Of a stretch of DNA of 62,079 bases, positions 36,652 to 42,036 are shown one piece after another (within the stretch, counting starts at the first letter, position 1; the number at the start of each line of letters is the position of its first letter). The notes below the pieces were generated by a model. The model made no database searches. It saw only the letters and a list, made by a program, of their open reading frames with translations, and was not told the DNA's origin. Position numbers and translations under genes: made by a program. This DNA comes from an uncultured Pseudomonadota bacterium (GTDB taxonomy: Bacteria; Babelota; Babeliae; Babelales; RVW-14), in NCBI GenBank assembly GCA_964388745.1, contig CAYMBP010000002.1, positions 20,854 through 82,932 of the forward strand. Reading direction: 5' to 3'.

Positions 36652-37572
36652 ATGTTTCGTCACATTCTTATTTTTGCTATTACATTCTTTTGCTTTTTTT
36701 CAAAAACATATAGCATGATTTCTTCTTCATTATCTTCTAGTAAAAAACTACAAACGCCAACTCGAGACTCTCTATTATCTAATCATTATCAACCAAAAAT
36801 TCAAAAAATTCGCCCTTTTATGCTCAATTTGGGACGAATAGATAACCATGAAAATATTTTTTCTTATGAAATACGACCTGAACACTTTGACTGCAAAGAG
36901 AATGTACTTGCACAACTTTCAAATAAAATTCATTACTTAAATAGAATAACAGGTTGTGGTAAAGAATTTTATTTTTCCTGGTGGCATAATATGAATAACC
37001 CACACCAAGGCTTTATAGACCCGCATGATCATCTAAAAATATTAAATTTAGTACGTACCACTGGATCAATTCCTCAAGAAGGCCCTATTTATCCTTCTCT
37101 TTACAATAAAATACCTTACCTTAAAGCTCTTTTTGAAAAAAATCCTCAATTGCTATGCCACTATCTTAATACCTTCTTTAATTATTTTGAAACACGATAT
37201 AAAAATCTTTCTACAAATGCCCGATATCAATCAATGAATTATCAAGAAATACATACCACAGCACATTTGTTACAATATGCTCATTTTGGTAATATTTTTA
37301 TTTGGGGTATTATTCCTCTTATTCTTAATCTCCCTGAAGAAGAAGCTACAAATCTTTTTTGTGATGTCATGCTTTCACCTTATAGCACACATTTTAATGA
37401 GCAAGAGCAAAGCATTATTATTTCAAGCATTCTTAAAAAAAGAGGCGTAAAGCTTTGTGATGATCTACAGCTTTTATTTGATGATAATAATCAGCAATTA
37501 ATTAATCTCTTTTCAACTATTCTTACATTTATCACTTCCAAACCGTTTCTTTCTCAACAATTTAAAGACTAA
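36652..37572 (+). CDS. Secreted hypothetical protein, tandem family B1 member
   Basis: GGAG at 36641-36644 precedes the ATG at 36652. Signal peptide MFRHILIFAITFFCFFSKTYS. It shares NPQLLCHYLNTFFNYFETRYKNL with the next gene. Confidence 0.65.
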   Translation: MFRHILIFAITFFCFFSKTYSMISSSLSSSKKLQTPTRDSLLSNHYQPKIQKIRPFMLNLGRIDNHENIFSYEIRPEHFDCKENVLAQLSNKIHYLNRITGCGKEFYFSWWHNMNNPHQGFIDPHDHLKILNLVRTTGSIPQEGPIYPSLYNKIPYLKALFEKNPQLLCHYLNTFFNYFETRYKNLSTNARYQSMNYQEIHTTAHLLQYAHFGNIFIWGIIPLILNLPEEEATNLFCDVMLSPYSTHFNEQEQSIIISSILKKRGVKLCDDLQLLFDDNNQQLINLFSTILTFITSKPFLSQQFKD

Positions 37573-37585
37573 AAAACTTAGCCTT

Positions 37586-38368
37586 ATGAGACAGCTCTTC
37601 TTCATCACAATACTCCTTGCAGCTTCACCAAGCCTTTACCCCATGCTAAAAATCTATAAAAAACCATCTATTCTTCAAGAAACAAGACGATTTCAACATA
37701 ATATTTCTGGAAAAAATTTTTCTTTTTCACAAGCACCAAAGAGATCTTACCTGTTTTATCTTAATTCAGAACATGAGATTGCTTTCCAACCTAAAATTGC
37801 AATCGACCTTACAAGTAAAACTCTTGCAGACTGTATAGCAGAAAAAATAGCGCTCCTTGATTCAAACTATCATATTGGCCTACCCTCCTATTTTTCTTAC
37901 ATAAACCTAAGCAATCCAGAGCTCCTTCGCCTTTATTTTTCAACACAACAATTTTCCTATCTCCCTTGCCCTAAAAAATTAGGTACATCATTAGCTGAAC
38001 ACCATCCTCATCATGTGTGCCAACATCTTAATATTTTTTTTTCTTACTTTGAAAGATTATTTCAACAACTTGAATGCCAATGTATTAATTCATTTCACAT
38101 AGAATCTAATCAGGAAGTCTTATTTATAATTCAAAATAACGGAAGCAATATTGCAACCTGGATGCTTCTTTCGTTTATTTTAAAAAGCCTCAAGTTTGAT
38201 AAACCCATTTTTTTTGATCAAAGTTTTTTAGATTCCTATTTTTCAAATCTTGAAGAAGCTCATCAAGAAATTATATCACCTTTCTTAATGCCCCACCAAA
38301 CAGATAAATCTATACAACATGATATAGAAAAAATACTCTTTTTTCTTGTTTATAATAAAGATGAATAA
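37586..38368 (+). CDS. Secreted hypothetical protein, tandem family B1 member
   Basis: Signal peptide MRQLFFITILLAASPSLYP. HPHHVCQHLNIFFSYFERLFQQL and QEVLFIIQNNGSNIATWMLLSFILKS parallel blocks in 36652-37572. Confidence 0.65.
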   Translation: MRQLFFITILLAASPSLYPMLKIYKKPSILQETRRFQHNISGKNFSFSQAPKRSYLFYLNSEHEIAFQPKIAIDLTSKTLADCIAEKIALLDSNYHIGLPSYFSYINLSNPELLRLYFSTQQFSYLPCPKKLGTSLAEHHPHHVCQHLNIFFSYFERLFQQLECQCINSFHIESNQEVLFIIQNNGSNIATWMLLSFILKSLKFDKPIFFDQSFLDSYFSNLEEAHQEIISPFLMPHQTDKSIQHDIEKILFFLVYNKDE

Positions 38369-38439
38369 TCCATTGTATTGCGAAAACACATTATGCTATG
38401 TTCCTAAAATAGGTGTTCATTTTTAACAAGGATAAAAAC

Positions 38440-40719: not shown

Positions 40720-40720
40720 C

Positions 40721-40777
40721 AAGCAATTTATCGTTAAAAATATTTCAAACTGAAATATTTTTAACGATAAATTGCTT
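40721..40777 (+). terminator. Perfect 27-bp-stem AT-rich hairpin
   Basis: AAGCAATTTATCGTTAAAAATATTTCA-AAC-TGAAATATTTTTAACGATAAATTGCTT, starting 2 nt after the stop at 40719. Confidence 0.55.
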
Positions 40778-40854
40778 TAATCTTGCATATTATTCATTTA
40801 TCGTGTACTGTGTTAAAAAATACAAACTGCTATATTTTTCAATAATCATAATAA

Positions 40855-42036
40855 ATGGATGATCATATGCTTAAAAAAATAATAATTCTTATTACCATAT
40901 TTTCTATGTCTCTAGCTTCAGCAATGAACAACGGCAATAACCAAAATGATGAAAACAACTTACAAACACCTCCTCGCAATCATATGAGATTTAAGAACCC
41001 AGAAACTCCTCAAGGAAGAAGTCCTGCTACTTATTGGAAAGATGTCTATCAAAGGCTAAAATCGATAGGCTTTTCATCTCTAAAAAGAAGGGCTCTTTTT
41101 GCAAATGAGAATACAACAGATGAAAATCGTCCAGAAACTCTGCTTGAAAAGGCTTTAACAGATTCTATCAATAAGAGCAGACATTTTTATATCACAGAAG
41201 GATATGTTTTTAGTCACTCTCTTGATTTAAATACAACTTTTCATGTTAATGCACTTACAAACATGAATAAAGAGTCTGAGTACAATATTTTTCACTATCT
41301 TATTATGTTGAATTCGATCGAAATATGCAATAACCTTCTAAGCAATCTTAAAGAAATTATTTATAGTAATAACAAAGAAGATGGTCATAAAAAGTTAGTT
41401 TCTCAAATTTCACCAAATCATGGAACACCATATCACATAGCAGTAGATAATAAAAATTTTTCACTTATTTGCTGGCTCACCGAACACTTTAAAGCCGATC
41501 TTACAGCTACTGATGAAGATTGGGATCCAATACTTCATTATGCTATAACAAAAAAATCTAGTGAAGAAATTATTGGCCACTTAATTCATGCTGGAGCAGA
41601 CATCAATCAACGCAATTGCAACGATGGTAACACAGCACTCCATATTGCTATGAGAGAAAAACATTACACAGCAATTCTTCTCCTTGCCAGGTGTAAAGAT
41701 TCTCCACCAGATATGGCAATGCCGAATTCTCGTAATTACCTTCCTCTTCATCTTTTTGTAATGGGTCCAGAAACAGAGGATTCTATTGCATATTTAAGAA
41801 TATTTATGAGAATTATGAGAAGAACCAACAACAATCAAGGTACCAATTTATATATTGACGCAGAAGATTCTCAAGATAGAACGGTTTTTGACTTGCTTCG
41901 TTTAAACAATAATCGAGTACTTTATGGCATCATTAGGTACACCCGGCAATGGCCAGTGCATCGAGACAGCATTCCACGTGGAAAACGTCTAGTACATTTG
42001 AGCTGGGCAAATTCGTCAAGAAGAAGACGGAATTAG
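40855..42036 (+). CDS. Signal-peptide ankyrin-repeat protein
   Basis: The N-terminus is MLKKIIILITIFSMSLASA (an alternative start is at 40867). ANK units include GTPYHIAVDNKNFSLICWLTEHFKADLTATDEDWDPILHYAITKKSSEEIIGHLIHAGADINQRNCNDGNTALHIAMREKHYTAILLLA. The tail is Arg-rich (SSRRRRN). Confidence 0.8.
   Translation: MDDHMLKKIIILITIFSMSLASAMNNGNNQNDENNLQTPPRNHMRFKNPETPQGRSPATYWKDVYQRLKSIGFSSLKRRALFANENTTDENRPETLLEKALTDSINKSRHFYITEGYVFSHSLDLNTTFHVNALTNMNKESEYNIFHYLIMLNSIEICNNLLSNLKEIIYSNNKEDGHKKLVSQISPNHGTPYHIAVDNKNFSLICWLTEHFKADLTATDEDWDPILHYAITKKSSEEIIGHLIHAGADINQRNCNDGNTALHIAMREKHYTAILLLARCKDSPPDMAMPNSRNYLPLHLFVMGPETEDSIAYLRIFMRIMRRTNNNQGTNLYIDAEDSQDRTVFDLLRLNNNRVLYGIIRYTRQWPVHRDSIPRGKRLVHLSWANSSRRRRN

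Follow-up and report, generated by a model that had tools for sequence, protein, structure and literature searches.

In this work, we analysed a 5.4-kb gene island situated just downstream of ychF in a Babeliales genome of the Dependentiae. We read it as a four-gene operon (B1a, B1b, B2a and B2b) followed by an ankyrin gene (Ank) that forms its own unit, and every product bears an export leader. The window, i.e., the whole stretch of DNA analysed (62,079 nucleotides; G000:C2:20854-82932, where G000 is the source genome and C2 the contig), comes from a 1.33-Mb assembly of 43 contigs with a GC content of 36%. The YchF protein encoded next to the island has its nearest sequences in metagenome-assembled genomes (MAGs) of Candidatus Babeliales, candidate division TM6 and Dependentiae, at 55-68% identity, and within the same GTDB family it is matched at up to 71%; the source genome is therefore the only representative of its genus among the Babeliales compared. 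The consecutive same-strand open reading frames (ORFs) claimed in the original prediction, which was made from the letters of this DNA, turned out to be real, all of them lying on the plus strand and B2b being divided between two frames:

36652-37572, plus strand: B1a, 306 amino acids (aa); leader MFRHILIFAITFFCFFSKTYS followed by Met, then a basic Ser/Lys-rich linker
37586-38368, plus strand: B1b, 260 aa, starting 13 nt past the B1a stop; leader MRQLFFITILLAASPSLYP followed by Met
38440-39756, plus strand: B2a, a singleton orphan of 438 aa; leader MIKKSIFCLLILANGSLFG followed by Met; AAGGA upstream
39753-40034, plus strand: N-terminal piece of B2b, 93 aa; leader MKKVTVFWLFLCYQQANA followed by Met and a linker; GAGGA upstream
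39970-40719, plus strand (ORF from 40051): body of B2b, a stop-to-stop stretch of 249 codons read in the +1 frame
40867-42036, plus strand: Ank, 389 aa, in agreement with the database gene call; leader MLKKIIILITIFSMSLASA followed by Met; alternative ATG at 40855
36640-36644, plus strand: Shine-Dalgarno (SD)-like AGGAG, 7 nt 5′ of the B1a ATG at 36652; upstream sequence ...aaaaaggagagcttcaATG
40721-40777: perfect hairpin, a 57-nt palindrome (arms of 27 nt, loop of 3 nt) that begins 2 nt past the B2b stop

The first four genes are closely spaced, with intergenic gaps of 13, 71 and −4 nt (B1a/B1b, B1b/B2a and B2a/B2b, respectively), the B2b start overlapping the B2a stop by 4 nt (ATGA). The database gene call puts the B1a start at an upstream ATG, 36625, giving 315 aa; the SD position and the shape of the leader favour the downstream ATG, and we therefore place the start at 36652. 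The hairpin behind B2b is unique and represents the longest non-masked perfect palindrome in the genome; it is probably the terminator closing the B1a-B2b operon. About 20-30 further perfect hairpins with arms of at least 16 nt, probably terminators as well, are dispersed over the assembly. An Rfam search returned only sub-threshold miRNA-type matches on the island hairpin, which we rejected, and a promoter scan of the island gave a number of sites not above that in shuffled sequence.

Export leaders ending before a methionine

The leaders were assessed by inspection and with a rule-based scan. Besides the five island leaders, we considered that of an intact B2b paralogue on contig C22 of the same genome (the C22 copy, described below). 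All six begin with a basic n-region followed by a hydrophobic core, and five of them (B1a, B2a, B2b, Ank and the C22 copy) have small residues at −3/−1 and fit the criteria of a class I Sec signal peptide, which besides these residues and the basic n-region require an uncharged hydrophobic core of at least 10 residues within the first ~25; B1b fits less well. In each of the six, Met directly follows the predicted cleavage site, marked here by a slash:

B1a, ...KTYS/M; B1b, ...SLYP/M; B2a, ...SLFG/M
B2b, ...QANA/M; Ank, ...LASA/M; C22 copy, ...HIQA/M

The next residue (+2) is I, L, Y, L and N in the island proteins and L in the C22 copy. Past each leader there is a net positive stretch of 40 residues, 35-55% of which are S, T, Q, N, P or H against a genome mean of 28%. 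Thus, the signal-like N-termini and polar basic linkers noticed in the original prediction are present in every island protein.

The Met junction is not confined to the island. Among 276 secretory-like ORFs of the genome, Met follows 8.1% of the candidate −3/−1 sites vs. a background of 1.7%, a 4.85-fold enrichment (55 proteins), and 47% of these Mets are preceded at −1 by A, G or S, compared to 22-32% for control residues. About a fifth of the leader-like ORFs have this junction (82 of 399 under a loose rule, 55 of 276 under a strict one); at +2 they mostly carry Q, S or T, and Asp or Glu in only 5 of 82. Of the genes with a leader ending before Met, 58% have a core SD motif in front of the first ATG, while just 5% have one in front of the junction ATG, which equals the background of internal Met codons. 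Because the SD sequence stands before the first ATG and not before the junction ATG, we conclude that the leader is translated and that the first ATG is the true start. In the island itself, AGGAG, AAGGA and GAGGA precede the starts of B1a, B2a and B2b.

Five or six consecutive Met-junction genes would be expected by chance with a probability of about 4e-4 or less, and runs of at least four such genes occur in the genome only in the island and at C5:34528-39650. The latter array comprises four consecutive genes encoding proteins of 357, 342, 342 and 500 aa, at least three of which are paralogous to one another and to C33:179-1204 and contain internal repeats. Other leaders of this type were seen at C9:33229-34428, C14:14980-15519 and C17:18778-19467, and in the window at 28846-29745 and 55797-57186. 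When loci around ychF were compared, those of Babeliales/TM6 (25 loci) had a Met-junction rate of 7.0% and those of other phyla (55 loci) one of 2.0% (Fisher p = 0.004); a looser per-leader count gave no significant difference (p = 0.14).

Three orphan families and an ankyrin protein

B1a and B1b are true tandem paralogues, their similarity being weak but real. BLASTP aligned them with 28% identity over 100 aa (E = 1e-6), the Smith-Waterman score of 98 exceeded the mean of 38 obtained after shuffling (z = 9.9, Gumbel p ~2e-6), and the global alignment was colinear along the full length. The grouping of these two proteins into one subfamily, as originally proposed, is thus borne out. Profile-profile tests of B1 against B2a and against the B2b family were both non-significant. 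We also considered whether B1 is akin to the ORFans that occupy this position in the closest relative, and rejected this after comparison.

The second proposed subfamily, uniting B2a and B2b, did not hold. The body of B2b gave no significant BLASTP match to B2a, the shuffle test on Smith-Waterman scores yielded z = −0.3, and a profile built from B2b and the C22 copy matched B2a with an hhalign probability of 0.2%. The motif on which this grouping had been based, hand-scored over its first 26 ungapped columns, amounts to about 28-30 BLOSUM62 units, whereas random local alignments average about 40. A comparison of B2a with the C22 copy (z = 3.4, p ~0.007) was discarded, since it fails correction for 15 comparisons and gained no support from hhalign. 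What B2a and the B2b family do have in common is architecture: in each, a leader and a basic linker (about 50-70 aa) lead to a second hydrophobic helix and then a helical body, the second hydrophobic segment of B2a, B2b and the C22 copy having a Kyte-Doolittle value of 1.6-1.9. In B2a, the linker has a charge of +6, and the second hydrophobic segment lies at residues 72-88, ahead of a long helical body. Likeness at the level of sequence is not detectable, and the island therefore consists of three unrelated orphan families and an ankyrin protein rather than of two diversifying subfamilies.

B2b is open in neither frame along its entire length. Its body, encoding a membrane-type helix and a helical domain, has an intact counterpart elsewhere in the genome:

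39979-39983, plus strand: T5 run within a 65-nt zone (39970-40034) open in both frames
G000:C22:18368-19381 (= L003:6369-7382), plus strand: intact B2b paralogue (the C22 copy), 338 aa

The B2b body and the C22 copy are 40% identical over 239 residues (E ~1e-56). Comparison with this intact copy shows that, from about 39979 on, the second hydrophobic helix of B2b is read in the downstream frame, so that we place the frame switch at about the T5 run, within the segment coding for this helix. It may reflect a true pseudogene, phase variation or a homopolymer assembly error. For the C22 copy, the database start is L003:6276 (369 aa); the SD sequence and leader shape favour 6369 (338 aa). The gene is inserted in an ABC-importer operon, after the substrate-binding gene (L003:5245-6264) and before the permease/ATPase genes (7452-8342 and 8345-9058), and no gene of this kind is present in the homologous ABC operon that stands directly upstream of ychF in the closest relative (L010:1631-3288). 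The same contig carries, at L003:336-1826 on the minus strand (G000:C22:12335-13825), a 496-aa orphan without a leader, with a long acidic tract near its end and, after it, the terminal ...SPAKRRRTA, resembling a eukaryote-type nuclear localisation signal.

Searches for relatives of these proteins came back nearly empty. B1a found only itself among 5.8 billion proteins in a word-index search and had no match in 40 relatives; the B1 profile recognised only its own genome among 261 Dependentiae genomes, and a pattern scan of metagenome contigs gave nothing. B2a found only itself among 1.84 billion representatives in an exhaustive phmmer search. The word-index protein search with the C22 copy likewise returned only the query, and a pattern scan of genome contigs for the B2b family revealed nothing. 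The profile of the B2b family had four other matches in the 261 genomes of the phylum (E from 6e-4 to 7e-3), which we took as chance given the number searched. Neither Pfam nor NCBIfam scans of the B proteins gave anything above noise, and PDB sequence searches produced no match; weak RPW8, A46 and HGLS-type matches (E ≥ 0.009) were rejected as chance similarity between helical proteins. Hence the B proteins, as stated at the outset, match no recognised family, and the presence/absence check then suggested limits the B1 and B2b families to their own genome among the 261 compared.

The last gene of the island does encode an ankyrin-repeat protein, as claimed, its Pfam scores standing above the curated cut-offs: 77.9 bits (8.9e-22; cut-off 27.3) for Ank_2 (PF12796) and 45.9 bits (4.6e-12; cut-off 21.1) for Ank (PF00023). 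The repeats occupy about residues 190-280, behind an Asn/Gln/Pro-rich linker, and the C-terminal tail ends in ...SSRRRRN, from which nuclear or membrane targeting would be predicted. The NCBIfam models T4SS_AnkX (20.3 bits, cut-off 1400), AnkY (19.8 bits, cut-off 600) and AnkG (15.6 bits, cut-off 500) gave weak matches confined to the repeat region. Outside the repeats, the word-index search of 5.8 billion proteins found no relatives of Ank, and one repeat-only match had E = 1.8e-4. The genome encodes roughly 10-13 ankyrin ORFs in total, several with Met-type leaders. Judged by these sequence searches, the island proteins are genome-specific orphans, Ank only outside its repeats.

The variable slot downstream of ychF

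The island is bounded by two genes of higher GC content (38-39% in both, compared to 30-34% in the island genes):

35319-36440, plus strand: ychF, upstream flank
42206-43012, minus strand: methyltransferase gene, downstream flank

The divergent miaB-ychF pair is present in the source genome and in at least three relatives, and the content 3′ of ychF differs in every genome examined. The closest relative has there three minus-strand ORFans with leaders, a small ankyrin protein, likewise with a leader, and an ABC-F ATPase; in a second relative, the slot has no insert at all, and in a third it holds leader-bearing PPP-type phosphatase-like proteins. The latter, found in another member of the family (L014:6621-8348 and L014:8348-9790, both on the minus strand), are two proteins whose GDxHG, GDxVDRG and GNHE motifs are those of phosphatases of the PPP family (calcineurin-like). 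Among 14 further Babeliales loci, 12 have an ORF called leader-like by a crude rule either directly after ychF or one ORF on; no ORF 3′ of ychF in these 14 loci resembles any island protein. A Chromulinivoraceae MAG carries four tandem leader-bearing ORFs of 168-245 aa directly 3′ of ychF (L066:9116-11875, plus strand).

Two ORFans near ychF in the closest relative (L010:4916-5713 and L010:6670-7419, both on the minus strand) have similar 26-residue leaders ending in Pro-Met (MKIRINTQ...NASPM and MNIRSNAC...SVAPM), and their mature parts are dissimilar. Either divergence was much more rapid in the bodies than in the leaders, or leaders can be passed from one gene to another.

Probable role of the island proteins

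With a confidence slightly better than even, we regard the island as a lineage-specific cluster of Sec-exported accessory proteins that are cut before Met and probably act at the host interface. Each product would be translated from its first ATG and carried by Sec across the inner membrane, and signal peptidase I would probably cut directly before Met, releasing a mature protein that starts with Met and continues into a basic disordered linker. B1a, B1b and Ank would then be soluble periplasmic or secreted proteins, while B2a and the B2b family may be anchored in the membrane through their second hydrophobic helix. By analogy with other members of the phylum, the most likely role would be interaction with a protist host, the ankyrin module possibly binding a host protein. 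The cluster also bears traces of duplication (B1a/B1b; B2b and the C22 copy) and apparently of decay (the B2b frame change). In this respect, the gene birth and diversification envisaged in the original prediction is partly sustained: the lineage-specific orphan status of the proteins, the tandem B1a/B1b pair, the dispersed B2b/C22 copy, the broken B2b frame, the Met-type leaders that several ankyrin proteins of the genome also have and the variable slot speak for it, whereas the presence of three unrelated families speaks against two diversifying subfamilies.

Several observations weigh against this interpretation. The B1b leader has Leu at −3 and Pro at −1, a poor context for signal peptidase I, and the +6 linker of B2a is unfavourable for translocation and leaves its topology ambiguous. 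The clustering of Met-junction genes over the genome is modest (12 adjacent pairs vs. 6.3 expected, p ~0.02). AlphaFold2 gave pLDDT values (its per-residue confidence) of 39.5 for mature B2a and 42.4 for the alignment of the B2b family, so that the models are unusable, and fold matches to them would therefore be meaningless; the all-helical bodies of the original prediction find support only in these low-confidence models. Finally, the location of the C22 copy inside an ABC importer hints at an envelope rather than an effector role.

This last point leads to an alternative that we hold to be rather unlikely, namely that the proteins belong to the bacterial envelope and do not act on the host directly. 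B2a and the B2b family, each with a leader or signal-anchor and a second helix, would then reside in the inner membrane and work with transporters, and B1a/B1b would be in the periplasm. The intact B2b paralogue within the transporter operon and the second hydrophobic segment of B2a, B2b and the C22 copy fit such a role equally well, and, since about 40% of the crudely called ORFs in the genome have a leader-like N-terminus, the leader alone says little on host targeting. However, housekeeping envelope proteins are normally conserved within a family, and none related was found in the 261 genomes of the phylum; the ABC operon of the closest relative lacks such a gene, and leaders with Met at +1 also occur on several ankyrin proteins of the genome. 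At the other extreme, one may suppose that the island is a dense sample of a Dependentiae-specific sorting class marked by the Met that signal peptidase exposes, followed in this genus by a basic disordered linker instead of an acidic residue, that a second export step (type II-like or by vesicles) leads into the protist host, and that the four orphans and Ank are host-delivered effectors arising and turning over in a hot spot adjacent to ychF. We consider this improbable.

Two further explanations deny the proteins either a function or a cleaved leader, and we find both very doubtful. The island might be decaying or non-functional DNA with young ORFs coming or going and B2b already a pseudogene; the split frame of B2b, the failure of the searches to find homologues, the low GC content of the island (30-34% vs. 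38-39% in the flanks) and the lack of a confident AlphaFold fold would all agree with this. Yet at 30-34% GC chance is very unlikely to produce open frames of 260-438 codons, SD motifs precede three of the starts, and the leaders are canonical. Moreover, B1a/B1b and B2b/C22 have stayed colinear and open despite 60-72% divergence, implying long-term purifying selection, and an assembly error in a homopolymer could account for the frame change of B2b. As for the leaders, they might remain uncleaved and serve as N-terminal inner-membrane anchors, the Met being the relic of a start codon after a 5′ extension of the gene. An ancestral start would indeed leave a Met at the junction, the Pro at −1 of B1b makes a poor cleavage context, and the two ORFans of the closest relative that combine a common leader with different bodies look as if leaders were portable. 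But the enrichment of small residues at −1/−3 before Met is a signature of signal peptidase that a relic start would not need, and the Met junction is common to diverged Babeliales loci, suggesting selection rather than a recent accident. Taken together, these considerations leave us favouring Sec-exported accessory proteins, probably at the host interface.

Such a cluster accords with what has been reported for the phylum. In Chromulinavorax destructans, signal peptides are found on 44% of the coding sequences, the set being enriched in ORFans, and on 78% of the 98 ankyrin proteins (PMC6561590); these proteins were interpreted as Sec-exported and involved in host manipulation (PMC6561590, Deeg et al. 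2019). The genome studied here has the same style, with leader-rich ORFans and leader-bearing ankyrin proteins, although the island proteins have no sequence relationship to proteins of Chromulinavorax and other Dependentiae. Operon-like arrays, the Met junction and the families of the island are not described in PMC6561590. Since published work (PMC6561590) already presents arrays of signal-peptide ORFans together with ankyrin proteins as the norm for Dependentiae, the label of an effector "nursery" given to the island in the original prediction adds little. The island is an ordinary, if neat, instance of the gene content already known from the phylum, and it is plausibly host-directed.

Other systems resemble the island in part. 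AnkX/LegA8, AnkY and AnkG of Legionella and Coxiella likewise place a eukaryote-type ankyrin module in an intracellular bacterium, but the ankyrin effectors of the Dot/Icm system have C-terminal type IV signals and no Sec leader, whereas the island Ank bears a predicted N-terminal Sec leader. In Bacteroidetes, a "Q-rule" holds, by which Gln occupies +1 of signal peptidase I substrates; the Met junction similarly represents a lineage-wide preference for one residue at mature position 1, differing in that the residue is Met and that only about a fifth of the leaders have it. The chlamydial Inc proteins are type III substrates with one bilobed hydrophobic domain. As fast-evolving, lineage-specific proteins of an obligate intracellular bacterium, with N-terminal hydrophobic segments and a helical body, they may offer a functional analogy for B2a and B2b, in which, by contrast, about 50-70 residues separate the two hydrophobic segments, the first being a Sec-type leader.

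The proteins with which Dependentiae, as widespread parasites of protists, manipulate their hosts are essentially uncharacterised. Taken by itself, the island leaves existing knowledge unchanged; to the pool of candidates in this phylum it adds three new orphan families and one ankyrin protein, and it provides a clean local case of how such genes are duplicated, dispersed and lost to decay. It is chiefly of value for the six short leaders ending before Met, which offer test material on the purpose of the phylum-wide Met junction.

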